DNA from: an uncultured virus (IMG/VR IMGVR_UViG_3300031688_000006)
Lineage: Duplodnaviria > Heunggongvirae > Uroviricota > Caudoviricetes
Direction: 5' to 3' (one strand)
Length of the DNA: 64,000 nucleotides
Virus record (IMG/VR): IMGVR_UViG_3300031688_000006
Both the position numbers and the translations under genes were made by a program. Shown piece by piece: positions 3 through 25,571 of this stretch. Each line of letters opens with the position of its first letter. Within the stretch, counting starts at the first letter, position 1. The notes beneath the pieces were generated by a model that did not search any database, was not told the origin of the DNA, and worked only from the letters and a program-made list of their open reading frames with translations.

Positions 3-656
3 TTCTGGCAACCGTCAGAAGAAATATTGATACTTGAAGATGGAACTAAAATACTAAACGAAGAACCTTTAAACTATGTAAGACTCGATCCATTTGATAG
101 AGATTTACATGGCGAAAAGATACTAATGGAAAATGGCGAAGGTAGTTTCTTATTAGAAGATGATACTGTACCTGAGACTAGAGAATATTTCGTAACTGAA
201 AGGTCCATTGAACTAGACAATCCTTACATGTACATGGAAGATAATTCTAGAATAGTATTCGAAGACGATGTTGTTTTGATAGACGAAGAATCTGGTGAAG
301 AAGTTCACACATTCATTCCTATTGGCCCAACATTGAAAACCCTAAATATGATTGCATTTCAAAATACTTATAGAATCGGTAGATTTATGTATTTAGAATC
401 GGGCAATACTGCTGTTAATTCTGGTGGCGTAAATACAGAATATGACAGAGAAGATGAACATAGAGTCGTAATGGAAGATGGTAGTGGTTCTATATTATCA
501 GAAGAATCGGTATCAGAAGGATTAAGTATAAAACAGATGAGTGACATGACAGGTCTTTTATATGTCAGTGAGATAAACAAAAGACAAAGAAAAAGAACTA
601 ATATTGCATTCAGTTCTTATGTTAATTCATCAAATGTTTCAAATAGTGGCCTTTAG
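3..656 (+). CDS. C-terminal part of baseplate wedge protein (gp7-like), truncated by the window edge
   Basis: Frame is open from base 3; acidic (I/L)(L/M)EDG-type repeats; immediately upstream of gp8 as in T4-like phages. Confidence 0.55.
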   Translation, partial: FWQPSEEILILEDGTKILNEEPLNYVRLDPFDRDLHGEKILMENGEGSFLLEDDTVPETREYFVTERSIELDNPYMYMEDNSRIVFEDDVVLIDEESGEEVHTFIPIGPTLKTLNMIAFQNTYRIGRFMYLESGNTAVNSGGVNTEYDREDEHRVVMEDGSGSILSEESVSEGLSIKQMSDMTGLLYVSEINKRQRKRTNIAFSSYVNSSNVSNSGL

Positions 657-2257: not shown

Positions 2258-5200
2258 ATGTCAGAAAAAACAGACTTAAATATATCACCATACTACGATG
2301 ACTACAATGAGGATAATAATTATCACAAAGTTCTATTTAGAGCAGGTAGACCACTACAGGCAAGAGAACTAACTCAGTCACAATCTATCTTACAGAACCA
2401 AATACAGAAATTTGGTAATCACATGTTCAAAGAGGGTTCGATTGTAAATGGTGCTGAATCAGATATCGATATGGATGTCGAATTCGCCAAAGTCGAGGCA
2501 GTTAATCCTAACTCTTCTGGCACCGCCGATGTCGCTACTTATCTAAGTTCTTCAGTAACTAAACTATTGCAAGGAGAGACATCTGGCGTAGTCGCACAGG
2601 TGGTAAAAACAGTTGCACAAACCGGAACAGATTCAGACACACTCATAGTAAGATACTTACAACATGGTACAGACGGAACTTCAACTACAAATCCTTCTGA
2701 GAGATTTAATGCTGCTGAAGAGTTAATTGAAGTCAATGTTAGTGCCGCTGGTGCAGTAACAAGTGCATCAAACAACAACGAATTCAAAGTAGTTTCAGCT
2801 GGGTTAACACCAGTTGGTCGTTCATCTATTGCATCTATAAGTGAAGGTGTTGTATTCTTAAGAGGATACTTTGTTAAAGTAGATGCACAAACAATCGTAT
2901 TAGAAAAGTATAATGGCAAACCTTCTTATAGAATTGGTATTGACATTAAAGAAGAAATGATTACTTCTGGTACTGATACATCTTTACTAGATAATGCACA
3001 AGGTACAACAAACGAAAATGCCGCTGGTGCAGATAGACTTAAGTTCACATTAACACTTAATAAGTATGCCGTAAGTACTACAACTGATACAAACTTTGTA
3101 GAGTTGGGCAGAGTTAGTAATGGTGTAATTGAACTAGAAGTAAAAAGACCAGTATACAATCACATAGAAAATACACTTGCACGAAGAACATTTGATGCAA
3201 ACGGTGATTTTGTATTACAACAATTTACACATTCATTTAGAGAACATTTAAACGATGGAAGTTTCAACAGAGGATTCTACGAAGCATATCAAGGCGGAGA
3301 CGAGAGTAAAGGAGTTATGCAAATATCTCCTGGTAAAGCATATGTTAAAGGTTACTCTATCGATAAAACAGGAACAACTAATCTAGAATTCAACAAGGCA
3401 AGAACATCAGAGGCGCTTACGAATGCGAACTCTCCTGCTAGATTAGGAAACAAATTAAGAATCTTCAACGCACATACTTTACCAGAGTTTGGTGATTCAA
3501 CTACTACAAATTCATACAAAGCAATTAAACTATTTGATAAGGCAGTTGCAACTCCAGGAACACTAAACGCATATGCAGATGCAAATCATGTTGGCCATGT
3601 TGGTTTTGCGAGAGTAAGAAACATAGACGAAGAGTCAACAAGTTTCAATAACTTATATCTATTCGATATTAAGATGTTTACAATGTTATCTTGTACAGTT
3701 GCAACAAACAACTTTAAGGCAGGTGATAAAGTAACAGGTGCAACATCAAACGCAACAGGTATTGTTGCATATGAAGATGCTACAAACAATCATATCATGT
3801 TACATGATGTTGTTGGTGTATTTAAAACAACAGATGCAATCTCAGTAAAAGGACAAGGTACATACAGTTCATCTTCTACAATCACTGCTATTCGTAGTTT
3901 CCAAGTAGAAGATTCTAGAAGTGTTGGTCAAACAGCAACAGATAGTGGTGAACAAAACTTCACTGCCGATGTGGCATTAGACAATGACAAAATCATATCA
4001 GGTATAAGTACAATAACCGCTGCTGGTGCAATCACTGGTTTAGGAACTGCATTCATTACAGAATTAAGAAAGGGCGATATCGTATTAGATGGCACAGGCG
4101 CAGTTCAAATAATTAGTGCTACCCCAACAAGTAATTCAGCTGCACAAACAGTTGCAACTAGTAGTGTAGGGACTGCAACCAATGTTGCATTACTTAGACG
4201 AAGAGCAAAACTTTACAATCAAGACCAATCCGCTTCAGTATTTGCATGGCCTAGAGACCATGTAAACAAAGTAACACCTACTGAAGTTACAGTCAAGTAT
4301 CAAAAAGAATTTACAGTTGGTTCTTCTGGTGAGATAACACTCACAAAAGAATCAAACGAATCATTTGAACCAAAAAATAACGATAACTATCAATTTGCAA
4401 TTGTAAAACAATCAACGAATGCATCTAGAACAAGAAACAATGGTGTAGTATTGAAAGGCGATACTGTCGCTTCAGTCAATGTGTCTTCAGGCGAAGTTGT
4501 ATTAGGTACAGCTACTGATACTGGTGCAATAGTAAGGGCGACATATACAGTAAGTCAAACTAATCCTACTGCAAAATCAAAGAACTTGAGAGAGTACCGA
4601 ACAGTAAGATTCTCTAAGAACGATGCACACTCAGATAATCCATTCTATGGAAGTGCATATGACCACAAAGAGTTATCACTTGGCGTATCAGATGTATTTA
4701 AAATTAGAGGAATATTCGAGGCAGTTCCAGGAACAGACACAAGTGGTGTTGCAACACCTCCGAACGCAGCTATAACTATAACATCGGGTTCAATTTCAAC
4801 AGGAAACGTACTTAAGGGACAAACAACGGGTGTTCGTGCCAAACTTATTGACTGGAACGGAACTGGCAATACTGCATATTTCTACTATCTATCAACTAAT
4901 ACATTCACCGCAGGTGAAACAGTTGTTGATGAGACAACAGGTGCAATTGCAACGATAACAACATTAGGAACTAATTCTCCTGATATCACAAAAAGATATT
5001 TCTTAGACAATGGTCAAAGAGATGGTTACTATGACCACGCAAAACTTGTATTAAAACAAGGACAAACAACACCAAACAATCAGATAACAGTTATCTTTGA
5101 TATGTTTACAGGTGGTTCTGGTGATTTCTACAGTGTGAGTTCATATACAAATATTGATTACAAAGATATTCCGAACTTTTCACCAAACAAAGTAGACATA

Positions 5201-8200
5201 GGTGGGTTCGAACCAGACGGACAATTTGAACTTGCAGATGCAATGGACTTTAGACCGTCTGTTGGACAATTATTTGGTAATTCCGCATTTGGTGGGGCAG
5301 GGTTCATATTCAACATTTCAAGTATACTAGATTTATCAGATTTTGGTAGTGGTGGTAACGGTGCAGGTCATTTAATATCTCCGTTTGCATTTGATGCCAG
5401 AGACTTTGAATCAAGTAGAGCAAATATATCAGGAAACTCAAGTGCTGATATTAGTACTACTCGTGCATCTTACTCAAGATGTCCTTTGCCAACTTCAATG
5501 GTCAAAGCTAACATAGAGTTCTATGTACCTAGAATAGATAAGGTATACTTACATAGAGGTGGCGCATTTGAAGTCGCACAAGGTAACCCTAGTTTAACAC
5601 CTCAAAGACCAAATTCAATTGATGATGCATTAGAAATGTTTGAGATGTTTATACCTGCATTCACTAAAAATGTAAAACAGATTCAAGTTAGTTCTAAAGA
5701 CTACAGAAGATTTACAATGGGTGACATTGGTAAGATTAATCAAAGAGTCACAAACTTAGAAAGAATTACAGCACTATCATTATTAGAAAAAGACACGCAA
5801 ACAAAACAAATACTAGATGCAGATGGTTTCGATAGATTCAAATCTGGTTTCTTAGTAGACAACTTCAGAGGCCACAAGATTGGTGATGTATCACATCCAG
5901 ATTATCATGTTGGTATCGATACTAAACTAGGGCAGTTAAGACCACAGTCAGTATCAAACTTCTTTGATATACAATTAAACACATCTCAATCAACTGGTTA
6001 TAAACAGACTGGTGATTTAATCACATTACCGTTTACAGAAGTATCATATGTAAATCAAGATAAGGCATCGAGACATCTCAATGTTAATCCATATCATGTA
6101 TTCGCATTTATAGGTAATGTTAAATTAACACCTGGTTCTGATATATGGAATGATACAGAACAGTTACCAGAAGTTAGAATAAACAGAGAAGGAAACTTTG
6201 ACGCTGTTCTCTCAGAGAATGAAAATTCACTTGGAACGATATGGAATAACTGGCAGACTACATGGGTTGGTGAACCAATTGTTACATCAACTAACGCAGA
6301 GGCGTCAGTTCCAGGTTCGTGGTCAGGTGACCCCGCTCAAGGTGGTGAATGGGTCCAAGGTACAGTTATAACAACAGAGATTACTGAAACACCAGAGATT
6401 CAATCAAGACAAGGTGTAAATACTTCAGTAGTTGAAGACTTTGTAGAAACAAGAAACGATAGAGTTGTTAGTGTTAGTGTTATACCTTTCATTAGAAGTA
6501 GAGAGATAACCGCAGTAGGAACTAACTTAAAACCAAACACAAAACACTTTGTATACTTCGATGGTATCAGAGTAGATGGTTATGTAACACCTGGTAGTGC
6601 TGATTTCTCACAAGATGGCACAACAAGTAGAGGTGTTGGGGTAAAAACAAATGGTAATGGTAAAGTAGAATGTAAGTTCTTAATACCTAATGACCAATTC
6701 CAAAGATTCCCAACAGGACAAAGGTCACTAAAAATAACATCTAGTGCATTAAATCAAAGTAATCCTGACTCATCGGGTTCAGAGATTTATCAGGCACAAG
6801 GTCTATTAAACAGTTCACAAACAGAAGTTGTATCTACTAGAAATGGTAGAGTTATAACAGAAAGATTATCAGGCGAAAGAACAATAACGAGAAAGGGCGA
6901 AAGATTAAATGTGGAAAGTGATGGTTCATTACCACCTCCTCCGCCAATTAATCCTCCGGTACCACCAGCACCAATACCGCCGCCAATATTCATTATCAGC
7001 GAACCAGTATTAGTACCTGTTCCAGTTCCGGTCCCAGTACCTGTTCCAGTTCCGGTCCCAGTACCCGTTCCAGTTCCGGTCCCAGTAACACCGATACCGA
7101 TACCAGTAACACCTCCGGTTTTACCTCCTAGGAAAAAACCACCTCAGGTGCCAGACCTATTTGAAATACCAGATAGAATATCTAGAGCTATTGCAAGAGA
7201 AGAAGGACCAGGTTGGAAAGACCCATTGGCCGAATCATTCTTAGTAGAAGCCGATGGTGGTATGTTCTTAACATCTATCGATATATACTTTAAGACTAAG
7301 GCAACTAACTTACCTGTATCAATAGAATTGAGAAACATGGTAAATGGTTATCCAGGACAGACAACTTTACCATTCTCTATTGTAACAAAGGATCCAGATA
7401 CAGTCAACATAACAGACGATGGTTCTACTGCAACAACATTCACATTTGAATCTCCTGTTTTCCTAGAAGATAAACAAGAGTATTGTTTTGTAGTATATAC
7501 AAACTCACCAGATTACGAGTGTTTCATATCCAGAATGGGCGAAACAGACTTAATCACTGGTCAAACAATATCAGGACAACCATACGCTGGTTCATTATTC
7601 TTATCGCAGAATGCATCCACATGGACAGCAGAACAAACAGACGACTTGAAATTCAATATGAAGGCTGCTAAATTCACTAGGAATTCTACTGCCAACATAG
7701 TATTTGAAAACGAACATTTACCTCCAAGACCATTACAGAATAACTCAGTTGAGACATACAGTGACCAATCATTCTTTAGAGTGTATAGTTACGCACATGG
7801 AATGTATGATACAACTTCGAATGTTGTAATATATGGTATACAAGGAGACAAAAAGAACGGTGTCTTAACAGTCGCAGTTGCATCAACGACAGGAACTCCT
7901 GCCGAGAACACTTACATCAATCAGAACCTTGGCACAACAGGTGGAACAGGAACTGGAATGAAAGTTGGTGGTTATGTTGTTAATTCTAGTAATGCTATTA
8001 CTGCATTTACAATCAGTGACCCAGGTGTTGGTTATACCGCAGCTGACACACTAACAGTAGCAGGATTAAATAATAGTGCCTCTGGTACATTTACAGTCAG
8101 TTCTGTTGGAGATACCTTAGGTGGTATTCCAGTGGCTGCAATGAATAAGGTGTTTAGTAGTCTAACTAATTATGGCATAGATTCATTTGCCTGTACACCA

Positions 8201-9049
8201 GACTTATCATCATATAATTTAGATTATAGTAACGCAGTAGAATCAACAATTGGTGGAGGCGAAAACGCATTCGCTACTACTAACATGTATTACGATGTAC
8301 TGCATACAATGATACCATCTTTAACATTTAAAGATACTACAATGTTGTCAAGTGTTAGAAGAACAGGAACAAATTCACCTGAGTCAACTGCATTAGATAC
8401 AACATACACAATGCGTTCTACTAATGATTTCATAACATTGAATGATAATAACTATTTTGAGAAACCTAGTATTATCGCATCAAGTATTAATGAACAAGAA
8501 GAAGTAACTGGTGGGCCAACTAATAAATCATTCGAGTGTAGATTACAGTTTAATACTACTAATCAGAACTTATCACCAGTGATTGATGTTGGTACTATTG
8601 GTGCATTGGGTATCATGAATAGAATCAACGATATTGATTCTGCTTCTGATTTACCAACTGCTATGCCGTACATCGATTCAACAGAACCCGATGGCGACAA
8701 CAACGCAATGGTATACATAACAAGAAAAGTTAATCTTAAGAATCCTGCAACATCTTTAAAAGTAATCGCAGATAACTTTAGACCACCTGAATCTGATTTG
8801 AAATTCATGTTTAAGATATTGAAGAATGACGAGACAACACCTATCGATGACTTAGGGTTCGAATACTTCAATACGACAGGTGCGCCAGATGTAGTAACAG
8901 AACAAGATGCAAGAAACTTTAAAGAGTATGAATATACTGCCGAAGGTCTGCCAGAGTTCACAGGTTTTGTAGTTAAAATTGTTGGACAATCAAGTAATAC
9001 TTCGATTATTCCTCTAGTGACTGCATTAAGGTGTATCGCACTTGCCTAA
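2258..9049 (+). CDS. Large virion structural protein (DUF4815/VrlC-like)
   Basis: N-terminal LNISPYYDDY..YHKVLFRAGRPLQARELTQ.QSILQNQI, DRFKSGFLVDNF and DPLAESFLV motifs of the 2000+ aa protein that follows gp8 in marine T4-like phages. Confidence 0.8.
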   Translation: MSEKTDLNISPYYDDYNEDNNYHKVLFRAGRPLQARELTQSQSILQNQIQKFGNHMFKEGSIVNGAESDIDMDVEFAKVEAVNPNSSGTADVATYLSSSVTKLLQGETSGVVAQVVKTVAQTGTDSDTLIVRYLQHGTDGTSTTNPSERFNAAEELIEVNVSAAGAVTSASNNNEFKVVSAGLTPVGRSSIASISEGVVFLRGYFVKVDAQTIVLEKYNGKPSYRIGIDIKEEMITSGTDTSLLDNAQGTTNENAAGADRLKFTLTLNKYAVSTTTDTNFVELGRVSNGVIELEVKRPVYNHIENTLARRTFDANGDFVLQQFTHSFREHLNDGSFNRGFYEAYQGGDESKGVMQISPGKAYVKGYSIDKTGTTNLEFNKARTSEALTNANSPARLGNKLRIFNAHTLPEFGDSTTTNSYKAIKLFDKAVATPGTLNAYADANHVGHVGFARVRNIDEESTSFNNLYLFDIKMFTMLSCTVATNNFKAGDKVTGATSNATGIVAYEDATNNHIMLHDVVGVFKTTDAISVKGQGTYSSSSTITAIRSFQVEDSRSVGQTATDSGEQNFTADVALDNDKIISGISTITAAGAITGLGTAFITELRKGDIVLDGTGAVQIISATPTSNSAAQTVATSSVGTATNVALLRRRAKLYNQDQSASVFAWPRDHVNKVTPTEVTVKYQKEFTVGSSGEITLTKESNESFEPKNNDNYQFAIVKQSTNASRTRNNGVVLKGDTVASVNVSSGEVVLGTATDTGAIVRATYTVSQTNPTAKSKNLREYRTVRFSKNDAHSDNPFYGSAYDHKELSLGVSDVFKIRGIFEAVPGTDTSGVATPPNAAITITSGSISTGNVLKGQTTGVRAKLIDWNGTGNTAYFYYLSTNTFTAGETVVDETTGAIATITTLGTNSPDITKRYFLDNGQRDGYYDHAKLVLKQGQTTPNNQITVIFDMFTGGSGDFYSVSSYTNIDYKDIPNFSPNKVDIGGFEPDGQFELADAMDFRPSVGQLFGNSAFGGAGFIFNISSILDLSDFGSGGNGAGHLISPFAFDARDFESSRANISGNSSADISTTRASYSRCPLPTSMVKANIEFYVPRIDKVYLHRGGAFEVAQGNPSLTPQRPNSIDDALEMFEMFIPAFTKNVKQIQVSSKDYRRFTMGDIGKINQRVTNLERITALSLLEKDTQTKQILDADGFDRFKSGFLVDNFRGHKIGDVSHPDYHVGIDTKLGQLRPQSVSNFFDIQLNTSQSTGYKQTGDLITLPFTEVSYVNQDKASRHLNVNPYHVFAFIGNVKLTPGSDIWNDTEQLPEVRINREGNFDAVLSENENSLGTIWNNWQTTWVGEPIVTSTNAEASVPGSWSGDPAQGGEWVQGTVITTEITETPEIQSRQGVNTSVVEDFVETRNDRVVSVSVIPFIRSREITAVGTNLKPNTKHFVYFDGIRVDGYVTPGSADFSQDGTTSRGVGVKTNGNGKVECKFLIPNDQFQRFPTGQRSLKITSSALNQSNPDSSGSEIYQAQGLLNSSQTEVVSTRNGRVITERLSGERTITRKGERLNVESDGSLPPPPPINPPVPPAPIPPPIFIISEPVLVPVPVPVPVPVPVPVPVPVPVPVPVTPIPIPVTPPVLPPRKKPPQVPDLFEIPDRISRAIAREEGPGWKDPLAESFLVEADGGMFLTSIDIYFKTKATNLPVSIELRNMVNGYPGQTTLPFSIVTKDPDTVNITDDGSTATTFTFESPVFLEDKQEYCFVVYTNSPDYECFISRMGETDLITGQTISGQPYAGSLFLSQNASTWTAEQTDDLKFNMKAAKFTRNSTANIVFENEHLPPRPLQNNSVETYSDQSFFRVYSYAHGMYDTTSNVVIYGIQGDKKNGVLTVAVASTTGTPAENTYINQNLGTTGGTGTGMKVGGYVVNSSNAITAFTISDPGVGYTAADTLTVAGLNNSASGTFTVSSVGDTLGGIPVAAMNKVFSSLTNYGIDSFACTPDLSSYNLDYSNAVESTIGGGENAFATTNMYYDVLHTMIPSLTFKDTTMLSSVRRTGTNSPESTALDTTYTMRSTNDFITLNDNNYFEKPSIIASSINEQEEVTGGPTNKSFECRLQFNTTNQNLSPVIDVGTIGALGIMNRINDIDSASDLPTAMPYIDSTEPDGDNNAMVYITRKVNLKNPATSLKVIADNFRPPESDLKFMFKILKNDETTPIDDLGFEYFNTTGAPDVVTEQDARNFKEYEYTAEGLPEFTGFVVKIVGQSSNTSIIPLVTALRCIALA
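6931..7150 (+). repeat. Pro-rich / (PV)n low-complexity insert built on a 24-nt tandem unit
   Basis: PPPPPINPPVPPAPIPPP...PVPVPVPV; unit CCAGTTCCGGTCCCAGTACCYGTT repeated from 7022. Confidence 0.9.
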
Positions 9050-11923: not shown

Positions 11924-13561
11924 ATGTCAGATGATATTTTTATAAAACAGGACCAAGTTATAGGGCAACAACCCTTTATTAGTCAGACTGCGGTCAGTGG
12001 ACAAGCATATACAACATCACAAAGAGTCTATCAAGTTCCATCGATTGGACAGACTCCGTTTACATATGTAAATCGTACTCCTACTATAACACAAACGGCT
12101 TTAAATGTTCAGAATCCTTCAACTTATCAACATAGAAGTCCATTAACTTATCAACATAGAAGTCCGTCAACTTACAATCATAGAAGTCCTTTTACATATA
12201 ATCATAGGTCTCCGTTTACATATAACGCAAGACAACCGGCCAGCTATCAACATCAATCGCCTTCGACTTATCAGGTTAGTTATTCAAGACGAGAATCGTC
12301 TAACTATGACCATAGAAGTCCGTTTATAACGCAGGTTTCTAGAAGCGCACAAGAACCTAATATTACTCAGACTAGAACTCCGTTGATTTATCAACATCAA
12401 AGTACGTTTACCTATGACCATAGAAGTCCGTTGACATATGACCATAGGTCACCTGTTATTAGTCAGTCTACTTACAACCATAGAGAACCTATAATTTATC
12501 AAAGTAGAACCTCCGTGCAGAGTTCGTTTACTTATCAACATAGAAGTCCGTTTACTTACGACCATAGAGAACCAAGTACATATAATCATAGGTCATCTTT
12601 TCAGAGTCCGTTGATTTATCAACATCAAAGTCCTGCGACATATAATCATAGGTCATCTTTTCAAAGTCCGTTTACTTACGACCATAGAAGTCCGTTGACA
12701 TATGACCATAGGTCTCCGTTTATTTACCAAAACACTGCAAGTAAACAGACTACCGTTACTTACAACCATAGGTCGCCGTTGACATATGACCACAGGTCGC
12801 CGTTGACATATGACCATAGGTCACCATTTACATATGACCACAGAAGTCCTTTGACATATGACCATAGAAGTCCGTTGACATATAACCATAGGTCACCATT
12901 TACATATAGTAGAAGAACTCCTTTCATCTTTGATGGTGTAGATGGAGATGACGCTGGAGATAATTCAACAACTTGGGGTCCAGGCGATAGTAGTGCAATT
13001 GCATATGTTTCTGCTTCAGATGTAACTAGTAATCGTCTTTGGGATTCTACAGTAAATTCCAGTTCCGCATCTGGTGCTCACAATGCAAATTGCCAAATGA
13101 TTTTTAATTATCAAACAACTGGTTCAAACGCTAACACCCTTAGGGCCCGATGGCACATGGACAAATCAGCTCAAAGTACACAAATATCAAGATATGAAGA
13201 CTTTATTCAAAGTCATAGTCCAAGTGGTATCGATAGTTCTTGGTCATGGGATGTTAAATGGGAAACTACAACTGCGAGTCCAGGGTATTTCACCTCGAAT
13301 AACAACGGTATTGGAACCGGACCAAGTCTTGCTGAAGATACTTATCATAATGTATGGAATGGAACCACTGCTACTCAAAGACTATTCAAGTGGGAAGGTA
13401 GTACTTCTAACCAATCCGAGGCAGAAGTTAATCTTATCTCAGCTAATGTGAAATTCACTGTAAGAATATCGAAATCTGGAGAAACTTCTTTGTTTACATC
13501 GACTACAGCGCAATCGGTGTCAGTCTTCGTACTTAATACTGGCGGCGGAGGAGGTCCATAA
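11924..13561 (+). CDS. Mirror-pair 1 strand A: RSPxTYxH repeat protein with ~200-aa C-terminal globular domain
   Basis: aa 15-330 Pro-anchored 8/12-aa repeats; Trp/Ser/Thr-rich C-terminal domain ending TGGGGGP. Confidence 0.85.
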   Translation: MSDDIFIKQDQVIGQQPFISQTAVSGQAYTTSQRVYQVPSIGQTPFTYVNRTPTITQTALNVQNPSTYQHRSPLTYQHRSPSTYNHRSPFTYNHRSPFTYNARQPASYQHQSPSTYQVSYSRRESSNYDHRSPFITQVSRSAQEPNITQTRTPLIYQHQSTFTYDHRSPLTYDHRSPVISQSTYNHREPIIYQSRTSVQSSFTYQHRSPFTYDHREPSTYNHRSSFQSPLIYQHQSPATYNHRSSFQSPFTYDHRSPLTYDHRSPFIYQNTASKQTTVTYNHRSPLTYDHRSPLTYDHRSPFTYDHRSPLTYDHRSPLTYNHRSPFTYSRRTPFIFDGVDGDDAGDNSTTWGPGDSSAIAYVSASDVTSNRLWDSTVNSSSASGAHNANCQMIFNYQTTGSNANTLRARWHMDKSAQSTQISRYEDFIQSHSPSGIDSSWSWDVKWETTTASPGYFTSNNNGIGTGPSLAEDTYHNVWNGTTATQRLFKWEGSTSNQSEAEVNLISANVKFTVRISKSGETSLFTSTTAQSVSVFVLNTGGGGGP

Positions 13562-14673
13562 TGGCAACAGGACAACAACCACTAATATCGCAGGCACAAC
13601 AACCGGTAATTAGAAACCAACAAGAACCTAATATTAGAAACCAACAAGAACCTAATATCAGAAGTCAGCAAGAGCCCAATATTAGAAGTCAACAAGAGCC
13701 CAATATTAGAGTTCAGCAAGAGCCTAATATTAGAAATACTCAACAGCCTTCGATATATCAGAATTCTGTAAATTCTCAACAACCTAATATTAGAAATCAG
13801 CAAGAACCTAATATCAGAGTTGGTCAGGAAACTAATCAACAACCTAATATTAGAAATCAGCAAGAACCTAATATTCGTTCAAAACAAGTAACAGCACAAC
13901 AACCTACTATTAAGAATGCACAAAGTCCTTATATTAGAAATGCCCAAGACCCAAGCATAAGAACTGGTCAGGCGACAGTACAACAACCTAGTATTGCGAA
14001 TCTACAGTCTCCTTTAATTGCAAGAGCATCAATAGCCTCGCAAGAACCTAACATTAGAAGTCAACAAGAACCTAATATTAGAGTAAGTCGAGAACCAAAT
14101 ATTGCAAGTAGTCAGCAACCTAGTATTACTCAGACTAGAAGTCCCTTTATCTATAGGCACCCAATTAACGCTCAAGAACCTAACACTAGAGTACACCAGT
14201 CACCGGTGATTTCACAGGCGATTGCGAATAATCAACAACCTAATATTAGGGATGCTCAGACACCTTATATTGCTACTGGTCAAGAACCTAACATTAGAAA
14301 TCAACAAGAACCCAACATTAGAAATAATCAAGAACCTAACATTAGAAATCAACAAGAACCTAATATTAGAAGTAAACGAAGTCCTTCTATTGCACAACAA
14401 CCTACTATAAGTCAGCAACCTTATATTGCTAATGCACAACAAACTTATCAATTTACAACTGCGGTGCAACAAACTTACTTCCATAGGTCTCCGTTCATTT
14501 ACCAATCGAATACTAACAGTAATAGACCAATAGGTCCAGTTGCAAAAGTTAAAGGAGTATTCATAAAAGATGCTGATGGTACCGTAAAACCATCAACAAA
14601 AGTATTCGTTAAGAAAGACAGTTCAACAGTTGAGAAAATACATCAAGTACCTGCAACAGACTTTAACAAATAG
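13561..14673 (+). CDS. Mirror-pair 1 strand B: QEPNIRxQ repeat protein with C-terminal beta adaptor
   Basis: aa 5-320 repeats; TAATG overlap with previous gene; C-terminal KVKGVFIKDADGTVK..KVFVKKD. Confidence 0.85.
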   Translation: MATGQQPLISQAQQPVIRNQQEPNIRNQQEPNIRSQQEPNIRSQQEPNIRVQQEPNIRNTQQPSIYQNSVNSQQPNIRNQQEPNIRVGQETNQQPNIRNQQEPNIRSKQVTAQQPTIKNAQSPYIRNAQDPSIRTGQATVQQPSIANLQSPLIARASIASQEPNIRSQQEPNIRVSREPNIASSQQPSITQTRSPFIYRHPINAQEPNTRVHQSPVISQAIANNQQPNIRDAQTPYIATGQEPNIRNQQEPNIRNNQEPNIRNQQEPNIRSKRSPSIAQQPTISQQPYIANAQQTYQFTTAVQQTYFHRSPFIYQSNTNSNRPIGPVAKVKGVFIKDADGTVKPSTKVFVKKDSSTVEKIHQVPATDFNK

Positions 14674-14690
14674 GATGACTAAATAGTAAT

Positions 14691-15023
14691 ATGGCTATAC
14701 TCGCAAATTTATTCATTGACCAAGGAACAGACTTCACTATTGTAGTCGATGTTTCAGATGCAACAGGAGAGATTTTAAATCTTTCAGGTTATGTTTCTGC
14801 TGGTCAAATTAGAAAGACTTACGGTTCTTCAACCGTTTCAGCGACATTCACTACTACCAATGCAAACGCTACAGGTAAAGTAACCATGTCTTTGACTGAT
14901 ACTCAAACTTCAGCATTAGAATCTGGAAGATATGTTTATGATATGAACATAACCAGTGCTAGTGGTGTAACTACAAGAGTTGTCGAGGGCCAAGCAATCA
15001 TAACACCAGGAGTGACAAGATAA
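14691..15023 (+). CDS. Conserved virion-associated protein (BppU N-terminal-like Ig fold)
   Basis: NLFIDQGTDF, GQIRK, GRYVYD, RVVEG motifs; late-promoter-like ACTAAATA at 14678. Confidence 0.6.
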   Translation: MAILANLFIDQGTDFTIVVDVSDATGEILNLSGYVSAGQIRKTYGSSTVSATFTTTNANATGKVTMSLTDTQTSALESGRYVYDMNITSASGVTTRVVEGQAIITPGVTR

Positions 15024-22234: not shown

Positions 22235-24196
22235 ATGGCGACAGGTTCACAAAAGGTCAAAACACCCACAGGTTGGAATTCTACAAGAGGTGCATGGGTA
22301 AAAACTGCATCAGGTACTTGGAAAGATGCAGAACAAATCTATGTCAAGACTCCAACAGGTTGGAATAACGCATCAGGACAGGCAAGTGTCCAACAACCTT
22401 ATCCGTACATTGCTAACAATCAAGAACCCAATATAAGAAATAGGCAAAACCCTTATCCTTATATTGCTAATGCTCAAGAACCGAATATAAGAGATGCACA
22501 ACAACCGTATCCTTATATTGCTAATGCTCAAGAGCCTAATATTAGAGATGCAAGACAACCTGCGATTTATCAAAATCCAGTAAGCGCACAAGAACCTAAT
22601 ATTAGAAACCAACAAGAACCTAATATTAGAAGTCAACAAGAACCTAATATTAGACCGGCGAGACAACCTTCTACATATCAACATAGAAGTCCGTCAACAT
22701 ATAGAGACCCTAGAACATATCAACATCCGACTACCTATCAGCATAGAAGTCCTTTGACTTATCAGCATAGAAGTCCGTTGACATATAACCATAGGTCGCC
22801 GTTGATTTATCAACATCAATCGCCTTCTACATATAGTAATAGACAACCTAGTACATATAATCATAGGTCACCTTATCAGAGTCCGTTTACTTACAATCAT
22901 AGAAGTCCGTTGACATATAACCATAGGTCACCGTTTACATATCGTAATCCGTTTACCTATAACCATAGAAGTCCTCTAACATATAACCATAGGTCTCCTT
23001 ATAGAAGTCCGTTCACTTATCAACATAGAGAACCGAACACTTATAACCATAGGTCACCTTATCAGAGTCCGTTCACTTATCAACATAGAGAACCGAACAC
23101 TTATAACCATAGGTCACCGTTTACATATCGTAATCCGTTTACCTATAACCATAGAAGTCCTTTAACATATAATCATAGAAGTCCTTACACTTATAACCAT
23201 AGGTCACCGTTTACTTACCGTAATCCGAGTACCTATAACCATAGAAGTCCTTCAACATATAATCATAGAAGTCCTTACACTTATAACCATAGGTCGCCAT
23301 TTACATATCGTAATCCGTTCACCTATCGTAATCCGTTTACATATAACCATAGGTCACCGTTTACATATCGTAATCCATTTACCTATCGTAATCCGTTTAC
23401 ATATAATCATAGGTCGCCGTTTACATATCGTAATCCGTTTACCTATCAGTTGCCGTTCACATATAACGCAAGACAACCGTTTACATATAACGCAAGACAA
23501 CCAGGCACATATAACAACAGACAACCGTTCACTTACAATCATAGAGAACCGTATACTGTTAATGCAAGACAACCGTTTACATATAATGCTCGTACTGGAG
23601 TTAATGTCCAATCTGTTGGACAACAACCAAGTATTTACTCATTCCGTAACCCGTTCAACTTCCCAGGTGGTGGCGGAGGTTGCTTCGCTCCAGGTTCATT
23701 GATATGGCTTGCAGATGGAAGTCATTCGCCTATTGAAGATTGTGTTCTTGGTCAATATGTAATGACTTGGAACGAAAGTACAAAACTTCTAGAACCTAGA
23801 GAGATATCTCTAATCATGCAACCAAGAATGTGTCCTATATTTGATGTTACATTCTCAGATGGAAGAGTATTACAAATGACTGATACTCATCCATTAATGT
23901 TACCAAATGGTCAATGGGGTGCATTAGATGTTGAGAAATCAGTTAGAGAACATGAATGGATGCAAGATATAGAAACTCATGAAATCGCAATTGGCGATAG
24001 TATCTTTAGTATGTTAGATGGTATAATGTTTGACAGACAAGATGAAATGGGCTTAGAAATAGTATCTGTAGAAGAACATTCAGAGATGGAAGTACATAAC
24101 TTAAGTGGAGTTCAAGACAACAATAACTTCTTTGTTAATGGAATGCTCGCTCATAACTTTGGTAATCAGTTCCAGTCTCCACAGGTTAAGAACTAA
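22235..24196 (+). CDS. Mirror-pair 2 strand C: N-terminal VKT..GW adaptor, 418-aa repeat array, C-terminal Hint domain
   Basis: aa 1-52 three VKTxxGxW repeats; aa 53-470 QEPNIR then RSPFTYNH repeats; GGGGG-CFAPG...TDTHP...FFVNGMLAHN. Confidence 0.85.
   Translation: MATGSQKVKTPTGWNSTRGAWVKTASGTWKDAEQIYVKTPTGWNNASGQASVQQPYPYIANNQEPNIRNRQNPYPYIANAQEPNIRDAQQPYPYIANAQEPNIRDARQPAIYQNPVSAQEPNIRNQQEPNIRSQQEPNIRPARQPSTYQHRSPSTYRDPRTYQHPTTYQHRSPLTYQHRSPLTYNHRSPLIYQHQSPSTYSNRQPSTYNHRSPYQSPFTYNHRSPLTYNHRSPFTYRNPFTYNHRSPLTYNHRSPYRSPFTYQHREPNTYNHRSPYQSPFTYQHREPNTYNHRSPFTYRNPFTYNHRSPLTYNHRSPYTYNHRSPFTYRNPSTYNHRSPSTYNHRSPYTYNHRSPFTYRNPFTYRNPFTYNHRSPFTYRNPFTYRNPFTYNHRSPFTYRNPFTYQLPFTYNARQPFTYNARQPGTYNNRQPFTYNHREPYTVNARQPFTYNARTGVNVQSVGQQPSIYSFRNPFNFPGGGGGCFAPGSLIWLADGSHSPIEDCVLGQYVMTWNESTKLLEPREISLIMQPRMCPIFDVTFSDGRVLQMTDTHPLMLPNGQWGALDVEKSVREHEWMQDIETHEIAIGDSIFSMLDGIMFDRQDEMGLEIVSVEEHSEMEVHNLSGVQDNNNFFVNGMLAHNFGNQFQSPQVKN
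23681..24157 (+). other. Hint (intein-like) autoprocessing domain, 159 aa, no endonuclease
   Basis: Cys1 (CFAPGSLIWLADG), block B TxxH (TDTHP), terminal HN; +1 residue is Phe. Confidence 0.85.
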
Positions 24197-24242: not shown

Positions 24243-25571
24243 ATGCCACAACAACCGGTAATAGCAAACGCTCGAGCGAGTGTCAGGTCCCCTAGTATAG
24301 GACAACAACCTTACATTGCAAATGGTCAAACTCCATTTATTCAACCTACGCAGGGTCCTGCTATAAGAAACGGCCAGACACCGTACATCGCTAATAGTCA
24401 GACGCCTTATATTGCTAATGGACAGACACCTTATATTGCTAATGCGAGGTCGCCTAGAAACGGTCAATCGCCTAGTAATGCACAAGAACCTAATATTAGA
24501 AGTGCTCAGTCACCTAGTAATGCTCAGTCACCTAGTAACGCACAAGAACCTAACATTAGAAGTGCCCAGTCACCTAGTAATGCTCAGTCACCTAGTAACG
24601 CACAAGAACCGAACATTAGGTCTATACAAGAACCTAATATTAGAAACAATCAGCAACCTAATATTAGAAATGCTCAGACGCCTAGTAACGCACAAGAACC
24701 GAACATTAGGTCTATACAAGAACCTAATATTAGAGCTCAACAAGAACCTAATATTAGAAGTGCCCAGTCACCTAGTAACGCACAAGAACCTAATATAAGA
24801 AGTTATCAGTCTCCTTATATTGCGAGCGCACAACAGTCTGCTCAAGAACCTAATATAAGAAGTTATCAGTCTCCTTATATTGCGAATGCTCAGCAAACAG
24901 CACAACAACCTAACATTAGAAACCAACAAGAACCTAATATTAGAAATGGTCAGTCACCTAGTAATGCACAAGAACCTAACATTAGAAGTCAACAAGAACC
25001 TAATATTCGTTCAGCACAACAATCAGCACAAGAGCCGAATATCAGAAATGCTCAGACTCCTTATATTGCGAATGCACAAAATCCATTTGCTAGAAGTCAA
25101 CAAGAACCTAACATTAGAAACCAACAAGAACCTAATATTAGAGCTCAACAAGAACCTAATATAAGAAACAGACAGACTACTTCTAATTATCAGAATCCTG
25201 TAAATGCTCAGAATCCATTTATTAGAAATGCTCAGACACCATTTACATATGACCATAGAAGTCCGTTGACATATGACCATAGGTCACCATTGACTTACAA
25301 TCATAGAAGTCCGTTTACTTACAGAAATCCTTCAAGTAGTCAGACTCCGTTTACTTATGACCATAGAAGTCCTTCGACATATGCTAGACAAGGTCAAACA
25401 CCTTTCACATATCAACATCAAAGTCCTTCAACATATGCTAGACAAGGTCAAACACCTTCTACTTATGACCATAGAAGTCCTTCGACATATGCTAGACAAG
25501 GTCAGACAACTGTTATCCGTGGGGATGGTGTTCTATCGCAAACGTGGCCAGGCACTCCTATATCGTCATAA
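24243..25571 (+). CDS. Mirror-pair 2 strand D: 418-aa repeat array
   Basis: aa 3-420 QEPNIR/QSPSNA then RSPxTYDH repeats; almost no non-repeat sequence. Confidence 0.85.
   Translation: MPQQPVIANARASVRSPSIGQQPYIANGQTPFIQPTQGPAIRNGQTPYIANSQTPYIANGQTPYIANARSPRNGQSPSNAQEPNIRSAQSPSNAQSPSNAQEPNIRSAQSPSNAQSPSNAQEPNIRSIQEPNIRNNQQPNIRNAQTPSNAQEPNIRSIQEPNIRAQQEPNIRSAQSPSNAQEPNIRSYQSPYIASAQQSAQEPNIRSYQSPYIANAQQTAQQPNIRNQQEPNIRNGQSPSNAQEPNIRSQQEPNIRSAQQSAQEPNIRNAQTPYIANAQNPFARSQQEPNIRNQQEPNIRAQQEPNIRNRQTTSNYQNPVNAQNPFIRNAQTPFTYDHRSPLTYDHRSPLTYNHRSPFTYRNPSSSQTPFTYDHRSPSTYARQGQTPFTYQHQSPSTYARQGQTPSTYDHRSPSTYARQGQTTVIRGDGVLSQTWPGTPISS

Follow-up and report, generated by a model that had tools for sequence, protein, structure and literature searches.

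Genes A and B are adjacent in a 64,000-nucleotide stretch of DNA from an uncultured virus (Uroviricota; Caudoviricetes; IMG/VR record IMGVR_UViG_3300031688_000006; the whole stretch is referred to here as the window), and they encode proteins with long arms of short, proline-anchored repeat units, in which the spacing of the A arm is the mirror image of that of the B arm. From comparisons of these and related sequences, we consider it probable that the two proteins are the arms of one long, split antiparallel beta hairpin, a fibre that would carry the C-terminal tip domain of A at its turn. The A arm (about residues 43-335) would run outward and the B arm (residues 1-327) back, side by side and residue for residue in an extended, beta-type conformation; the variable C-terminal beta domain of A would form the distal tip, and the N-terminus of A and the C-terminal module of B would meet at the proximal end, which is probably where the fibre attaches to the virion. 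By simple arithmetic, 320 fully extended residues (~0.33 nm per residue) span ~100 nm. That A pairs with B, and a second pair of genes, C with D, each antiparallel and in register, had been proposed in an earlier reading of this DNA (the original prediction), and such pairing now appears strongly supported by covariation, namely by a mirror found in 18 gene pairs, by the complementarity of facing unit types, by a swapped block in one relative (L033) and by rules for the facing residues. Direct binding of A to B, the beta geometry, the 1:1 stoichiometry, any higher oligomer, presence in the virion and a receptor role for the tip are what we infer from these patterns.

The mirror can be read directly from the prolines of the two proteins. 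Counted back from P333, the prolines of A lie at distances of 0, 8..48, 68, 76, 84, 96, 104, 116, 124, 144, 156, 164, 180, 188, 200, 220, 228..268, 280, 288, 294 and 316 residues (two dots mark a run in steps of eight), and those of B, counted forward from P7, at 0, 8..56, 68, 76, 88, 96, 108, 116, 124, 136, 144, 156, 164..188, 194, 200, 208, 220..268, 274, 280, 304 and 316. The original prediction had condensed these ladders into one series of unit lengths, read forward in B and backward in A; the underlying coincidence of prolines is real, whereas the exact list of units is partly interpretive, being a common refinement of both ladders. Every A proline up to distance 288 sits on a boundary of that series, three of its 8+4 splits have a proline in one partner only, and at 194 and 274 it counts a 6+6 step of B as a single unit of 12. 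The proposed extension of the match to 316 residues holds, as P17 of A lies opposite P323 of B. When the regions were picked by eye, 26 of 30 A prolines coincided with B prolines at a single offset, as compared to a mean of 15.5 (sd 2.3) when the spacings were shuffled, with 1 of 2000 shuffles reaching 26; the best forward (unmirrored) match of A to B gives 21 coincidences. With regions bounded by motifs, 27 of 31 A prolines coincide (z 4.9), and a Needleman-Wunsch alignment that scores prolines only pairs A with B ungapped over 323 columns.

The same relationship was found in related genes. The tested set comprised 18 pairs, made up of the A/B and C/D pairs of the window and 16 further complete A/B pairs among the matches listed by scans of viral and metagenome contigs. 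All 18 carry the mirror (z 2.9 to 11.5), with arms of 200 to 354 residues; 12 of them align without an internal gap over 229-343 columns, and in 17 the A arm exceeds the B arm by 7-9 residues. Spacing patterns differ by lineage, and the best match of each A is its cognate B or a B from a relative with the same pattern. One relative, L003, matches the B of the window at offset 98 rather than 4, so that 94 tip-proximal residues are missing from both arms. In five relatives of the C/D pair the C arm and D vary together in length (508 and 472 residues, or 522 and 488-489, as compared to 477 and 442 in the window), and the alignments show one single-residue gap at the far end, with one further single-residue gap in L049.

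The placement of residues along the arms points to their likely conformation. Within each arm the prolines all occupy positions of one parity (even/odd counts of 0/31 in window A, where all 31 prolines of residues 1-335 are at odd positions, 50/0 in L007_A and 44/0 in another arm); Tyr, Phe and His fall on the opposite parity, Ile shares that of proline, and every unit has an even number of residues. A period of two residues that runs without slippage over 240-480 residues suggests the two faces of a beta strand. A two-stranded antiparallel sheet tolerates proline only where the NH group points outward, and facing prolines at even spacing therefore fit the outward-NH sites of such a sheet.

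In addition to their spacing, the units that face one another are complementary in type. At coinciding prolines, a PNIR-type unit in A lies opposite a PxTY-type unit in B in 57 of 59 cases, a PNIR unit in B lies opposite a PxTY unit in A in 128 of 146, and PNIR is never opposite PNIR (0 cases). PYPY units are found opposite PxTY-type 10-mers (21/24 and 12/13), and NPV faces NPV in 11 cases. Nine non-redundant, ungapped pairs contain 106 complementary unit pairs, as compared to 70.0 (sd 4.7, maximum 84) in 2000 shuffles. A block of ~7 units that is PxTY in A and PNIR in B of L003 is reversed in L033, which has the same spacing, and the block now present in the A gene of L033 resembles the B block in forward orientation.

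Individual residues follow the same logic. The strongest covariation among 189 distinct PxTY:PNIR unit pairs links position P+1 of the PxTY chain to position P-3 of the PNIR chain (mutual information z 31.7, a score that is inflated because the unit pairs share descent and are not independent), and other strongly covarying positions lie near the antidiagonal, at (-1,+1) and (-3,+3). Across 201 unit pairs from 14 gene pairs, L faces Q in 48 of 53 instances, F faces A, G or K in 87 of 95 (and Q in 2), and S faces A or N in 38 of 41; these rules recur in both the A/B and C/D families. It is this recurrence across lineages, and not the z-scores, that constitutes the evidence for a residue code. 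Register would thus be set at three levels: equal unit lengths across the pair (4, 6, 8, 10 or 12 residues, always even), complementary unit types (PNIR with PxTY, PYPYIA with ARQGQTPFTY-like units, and NPV with NPV) and matched facing residues (L with Q, F with A, G or K, and S with A or N). The original prediction had missed the code of unit types and residues, which may matter as much as the spacing. Taken to its full extent, these patterns would describe a protein 'duplex', in which two chains zip together antiparallel over more than 300 residues by rules of length, type and residue that can be read from the sequence and that compensate one another as in an RNA helix, a description for which we put the chances at about even.

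The second pair in the window provides a comparison for the specificity of the first. C and D carry both unit types, and their mirrored alignment yields 50 proline coincidences, a number reached by none of 2000 shuffles, with a single one-residue gap at the far end. Cross pairs fall at or below the shuffle means (13 coincidences vs 16.4 for A with D, and 17 vs 18.2 for C with B), which bears out the statement in the original prediction that the spacing of A/B differs from that of C/D. Its further proposal, that the spacing works as a barcode for the correct partner, fits the chance-level match of the cross pairs, but equal unit lengths would be needed on steric grounds alone. The mirror of the second pair seems to reach into the terminal caps, as the reversed N-terminus of C (KVKTPTGW repeats; 22235-22400) aligns with the C-terminus of D (TWPGTP; 25500-25571). 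Modules also seem to have been shuffled between the two families: L031 (141-1826) encodes a 561-residue protein with an N-terminus of the C type (MASGSQKVKTPTGW...) and a tip domain of the A type (...SSGISLR), followed by a B-type gene.

A mirror of this kind might in principle be a relic of nucleic acid, either of an inverted duplication that produced B from the antisense strand of A or of a long-range RNA helix. An inverted repeat would give mirrored spacing without selection on the protein, and B does share 36.2% identity with the reverse complement of A at the mirror register (background 25.9%, sd 2.5), with Watson-Crick plus G-U pairing of 45.6% (background 33.3%, sd 2.5). However, a control without biological meaning, in which A was reversed and left uncomplemented, is 38.1% identical to B; as this is as high or higher, the rise reflects two periodic sequences falling into register. 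Moreover, 45.6% pairing is far below that of a helix, no antisense frame of a PNIR unit reads as a PxTY unit, and the block that switched sides in L033 resembles the B block in the forward direction. The occurrence of distinct spacing patterns, each mirrored in its own partner, argues for continuing co-change rather than one ancient event. DNA or RNA complementarity as the cause of the mirror is largely refuted by the reversed control and the low pairing, and we regard this explanation as extremely improbable.

Relatives in which both arms belong to one chain bear on how the two genes are connected. A protein search with B returned 186 clusters at E <= 1e-5, all of them unnamed or 'hypothetical', mostly from marine metagenomes, and many with a Hint domain. 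The search for an internal mirror covered fourteen proteins of about 446-532 residues. In thirteen, a single chain has an N-terminus like that of A and a C-terminal module like that of B (the exception, P0015, has a D-like C-terminus), and the mirror is clear in three (z 5.3-7.2) and moderate in seven (z 2.2-4.5); where it is present, the two arms of ~150 residues are complementary in unit type. Such proteins (e.g. P0001, P0002 and P0008) share with A plus B the N-terminus of A, the C-terminal module of B, the unit types and the mirrored arms, but are unannotated and undescribed products of one gene with shorter arms (~150 residues) and have a central region of ~140 residues outside the mirror in place of the A tip domain. 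The existence of single-chain mirrored forms makes A and B look like the halves of a hairpin, with the break in the chain directly after the tip domain.

In an alternative reading A and B do not touch, each lying in opposite orientation along a third periodic component of the virion, or both serving as disordered spacers whose mirror was inherited from a single-chain ancestor through recombination of a tip cassette. AlphaFold2 treats the arms as unstructured (pLDDT 31 in a single-chain relative), and the tip-proximal parts of the two arms are contiguous in the DNA, so that a single exchange replaces both; the 94 residues missing from both arms of L003 count in the same direction. Set against this, genes A-D are the only ones in the window with such repeats, and no third gene has a matching pattern. 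The complementarity of unit types and the L:Q, F:A/G/K and S:A/N rules are hard to explain without contact, and the strict parity maintained over more than 300 residues speaks against disorder. Furthermore, repeat arrays easily gain and lose units, and a mirror that is not under selection should therefore decay. We judge the absence of contact to be very improbable and favour the paired hairpin, for which the contiguity of the tip-proximal arm halves has its own significance: one recombination can swap the tip together with the adjoining arms, and such joint exchange may help to keep the mirror intact while the patterns diversify.

Several observations nevertheless weigh against the hairpin reading. 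The A/B pair of the window is statistically the weakest of its family (z 4.8-4.9; 21 forward vs 26-27 mirrored coincidences), because both ends of its arms are runs of plain 8-mers. Gaps of 1-3 residues occur in L006, L016, L024 and L035, and larger unmatched gaps of 8 residues in L004 and 21 residues in L025. The original prediction had named tolerance of unmatched indels as evidence against its reading, and among the 18 pairs such tolerance is weakly seen in nature (one gap of 21 residues, one of 8 and four of 1-3); either register is not absolute, or some contigs are variants or contain assembly errors. PxTY units lie opposite PxTY units in 52 cases, so the types do not form a strict two-letter code, and the shared descent behind the mutual information scores has been mentioned above. 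The internal mirror is absent in 4 of the 14 single-chain relatives. In one study, contigs of two RNA-library runs span large parts of A and B, one of them bridging the A/B junction (12868-13638); these hint at transcription without proving it. Finally, the fibre model is built on sequence and has no usable structure model of the arms: the AlphaFold2 model of the single-chain P0008 (13-row alignment) has a mean pLDDT of 31.2 and is unusable, and a complex prediction of A 145-345 with B 1-195 from separate alignments scored 0.00 in both runs, with an uncertain partner fold and no controls, and is neutral on binding.

A separate observation concerns the pairs L024 and L025. The A gene of L025 (1959-3260) is ~20 residues shorter than that of L024 (794-2152), and both have a B of 271 residues; the difference is either a natural unmatched indel or a contig variant.

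Table 1. Coordinates of genes A to D, their parts and the flanks of the interval that contains them, numbered along the window.
Feature	Position	Strand	Length or residues	Description
Gene A	11924-13561	+	545 aa	N-terminal cap, repeat arm mainly of HRSPxTYx-type 8-mers, C-terminal all-beta tip domain
A repeat arm	12050-12928	+	about aa 43-335	Unit lengths 4, 8, 12
A tip domain	12929-13558	+	aa 336-545	Begins at conserved FDGVDGDD motif
A/B junction	13547-13563	+		GGAGGAGG, from the Gly codons at the A C-terminus, 6 nt before B start; TAATG stop/start overlap 13559-13563
Gene B	13561-14673	+	370 aa	Arm composed largely of QQEPNIRx 8-mers; conserved C-terminal module
B repeat arm	13561-14541	+	aa 1-327	Mirror partner of A arm; B position = 340 minus A position
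B C-terminal module	14542-14670	+		AKVKGVF...EKIHQ; nearly invariant across 21 relatives (alignment A3)
Gene C	22235-24196	+	653 aa	PNIR-type units, PxTY-type units, GGGGG-Cys, Hint/intein-like domain
Gene D	24243-25571	+	442 aa	Mirror partner of C, different spacing pattern
DUF4815 (VrlC-like) gene	2258-9049		2263 aa	Upstream flank of A-D interval
Neck genes (gp13/14)	from 30357 onward			Downstream flank of A-D interval

The features of the two pairs are collected in Table 1. The coordinates given for A and B in the original prediction are correct, and the TAATG overlap it described is confirmed by the sequence, in which the stop codon of A (TAA, 13559-13561) shares a base with the start codon of B (ATG, 13561-13563). 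Most relatives have either a TAATG overlap or a gap of 1-3 nucleotides at this junction (41 nucleotides in L016). The Gly-rich C-terminus of A, GGGGGP (codons GGC GGC GGA GGA GGT; window 13540-13563), contains a Shine-Dalgarno-like GGAGG, and Gly-rich ends recur in A relatives (alignment A2); the conserved poly-Gly end may serve the translation of B as much as the A protein itself. A programmed frameshift that would join A to B was considered and rejected, as no slippery heptamer is visible at the junction and its geometry differs among relatives. Codon use bears on whether these are genuine genes: the Ser of the HRSP motif in A is encoded by AGT nine times and by TCN seven times, with variable codons also for Arg, Pro, Glu and Asn. 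Mixed codons under a fixed motif mean that conservation acts on the protein and not on the DNA, and that these are real coding genes. Two antisense open reading frames within B (13582-13863 and 14212-14505, both on the minus strand) read ...SNIRLLLISNIRFLL...; they stem from the unit CCTAATATTAGA, which nearly equals its reverse complement, and are taken as by-products of the repeat rather than genes.

Conservation is uneven along the two proteins. The N-terminus of A is conserved among relatives (alignment A2), and the tip domain varies, with 24-70% identity (alignment A5). The AlphaFold2 model of the tip is all beta (pLDDT 76.8, pTM 0.79); Foldseek found no match to it in the PDB at E <= 0.001, and in a VIA-align comparison with 48,161 chains Z did not exceed 4.3, all matches being generic beta sandwiches; no fold was assigned. 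Pfam and PHROGs yielded no family for any of A, B and D, no PDB chain was hit by profile A2 or A3 at E <= 1, and the ESM Atlas returned only an unnamed viral cluster (0.75). Among 50,697 phage records, megablast and tblastn returned nothing for the A tip domain or the 5-kb region, in a search whose low-complexity filter may hide repeat matches. The only match of B, a 30%-identical repeat in Salmonella phage SEN22, is taken as spurious. Profile A3 had no match in HTVC008M, Melnitz, Mosig or S-SKS1, where an empty answer is weak evidence. These searches revealed no cultured phage that carries the pair.

Gene C ends (residues 477-653; 23660-24196) in GGGGG-Cys and a Hint/intein-like domain, in which this Cys and the motifs TDTH and AHN may correspond to the N-terminal Cys, the TxxH block and the terminal His-Asn of a Hint/intein domain. 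C matches the Pfam family Intein_splicing (PF14890) at E 2.3e-6 and 27.9 bits, below the cutoff of 35.8. A Phe follows the His-Asn, so that classical splicing seems unlikely and self-cleavage the more likely activity of this domain. It sits exactly at the break in the chain between the two arms, and proteins P0121-P0125 are A-like and have a tip domain followed by a C-terminal Hint domain.

The window belongs to the genome of a marine T4-like myovirus and has genes for neck, sheath, portal, scaffold, major capsid, terminase and replication proteins. In the major capsid protein it shares 66.4% identity with Methylophilales phage Melnitz and 64.4% with Pelagibacter phage HTVC008M. Genes A-D lie between a DUF4815 (VrlC-like) gene and the neck genes, an interval that passages of PMC7029224 describe as a hypervariable 'host recognition cluster' with tail fibres in pelagimyophages and cyanomyophages. 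A and B are thus located inside a tail-fibre/host-recognition cluster of a tailed phage, and the genes neighbouring them match tail-fibre PHROGs; given this location, their product is most likely a tail-fibre-like appendage. A gene of 110 codons directly after B (14691-15023) matches phrog_3304, 'L-shaped tail fiber protein assembly' (E 4.9e-23), and is kept after B in L006 and L007 (109 residues); its product is a candidate assembly chaperone for the fibre. A linker rich in Pro, with an extended (PV)n run, is present in the DUF4815/VrlC-like protein itself (about residues 1470-1530).

Near-identical DNA of the A/B pair occurs in at least 14 marine metagenome runs and in contigs of the two RNA-library runs, which likewise counts in favour of real genes. 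No indel variants of A/B were seen among the near-identical metagenome contigs, and the many contig 'joints' in this comparison are assembly joins induced by the repeats. In the nearest record, G001, the four proteins A-D are identical to those of the window except for one residue in A and one in D; with only these two differences, it contains no recent indels for testing co-change.

If the pairing is as proposed, A and B represent a novel class of architecture among fibrous proteins and a new principle of assembly, in which register is held in the lengths, types and facing residues of the units. To our knowledge, known phage fibres are parallel homotrimers, and coiled coils are essentially the only known case of protein pairing coded in sequence. 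The proposal would account for the way in which thin proteins of great length and low complexity find both their partner and their register, would mean that one phage uses two mutually orthogonal versions (A/B and C/D), and would offer protein engineering a programmable, heterospecific zipper that is orthogonal and designable. It would also describe a widespread appendage of abundant uncultured marine myoviruses (186 protein clusters; at least 14 metagenome runs), in which the variable A tip domain is a candidate determinant of host range. The comparative data make the pairing idea directly testable with two synthetic genes. Our literature search, in a library with few subscription journals, found no paper on mirror-matched repeat proteins or on the EPNIR, HRSPFTY, QQEPNIR or PYPYIA motifs, and the passages of PMC7029224 on repeats, proline and tail fibers mention no such proteins.

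Among known systems, several share single features with A and B. The Gly-X-Y triplets of collagen-like fibres are absent, the A/B units being Gly-poor 8-mers with a period of two residues. The stalk of streptococcal antigen I/II pairs Ala-rich with Pro-rich repeats in antiparallel fashion and has a globular domain at its tip; unlike A/B, it is a single chain in which an alpha helix packs with a polyproline helix, and it is a bacterial adhesin, for which we know of no unit-by-unit length barcode. The only Pfam family that touches B is Gp5_trimer_C (PF22178; E 0.0023 and 18.5 bits, below the cutoff of 30.9), which has no match in A, C or D. The C-terminal triple beta-helix of the phage tail protein gp5 of T4 is built from an 8-residue VxGxxxxx repeat and shares the 8-residue period with A/B. 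However, it is a parallel homotrimer of identical chains without a mirror partner or proline anchor, whereas the mirror of A/B points to an antiparallel heteromer.

Most phage fibres are trimers, and the hairpins proposed here might themselves trimerize. Such an A3B3 assembly would be a six-stranded antiparallel beta needle similar to the tip of T4 gp37, far longer and divided between two genes, with its aromatic/His face buried and possibly with metal sites. It refines the hairpin reading rather than opposing it, and we consider it possible but rather unlikely. F faces A or G in A/B-type unit pairs, and His, present in 172 of 189 PxTY units, lies on the same face as F and Y. On the other hand, profiles A2 and A3 had no hits at E <= 1 to any solved chain, there is one His per unit and no HxH motif, and translational coupling is the only evidence on stoichiometry. 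In gp37, as described in passages of PMC6957217, the chain extends to the tip and then returns (residues 811-881 and 1010-1026 together make up domain D10), seven irons are held in the needle by His, and a small residue packs on an aromatic one, with G921 in a beta strand packing on F970 of another subunit. The iron-binding HxH arrangement of that needle is not found in A/B, whose PxTY units have a single His (YxHRSP). Gp37 also differs from A/B in being one polypeptide that forms a homotrimer, with a stem of tens of residues rather than ~320 and iron bound by His; it has no 8-residue unit code and no split into two genes, and profiles A2 and A3 revealed no sequence similarity, although the two may be related at the level of the fold. 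The out-and-back topology agrees with the sequence mirror, the tip domain at the C-terminus of A and the single-chain forms. Even so, the out-and-back beta needle of gp37 (D10-D11) would be the closest functional analogue of A/B: it combines antiparallel strands that run out and back, a receptor-binding head at the turn and the packing of small against aromatic residues in the fibre of a T4-type phage, as A/B would.

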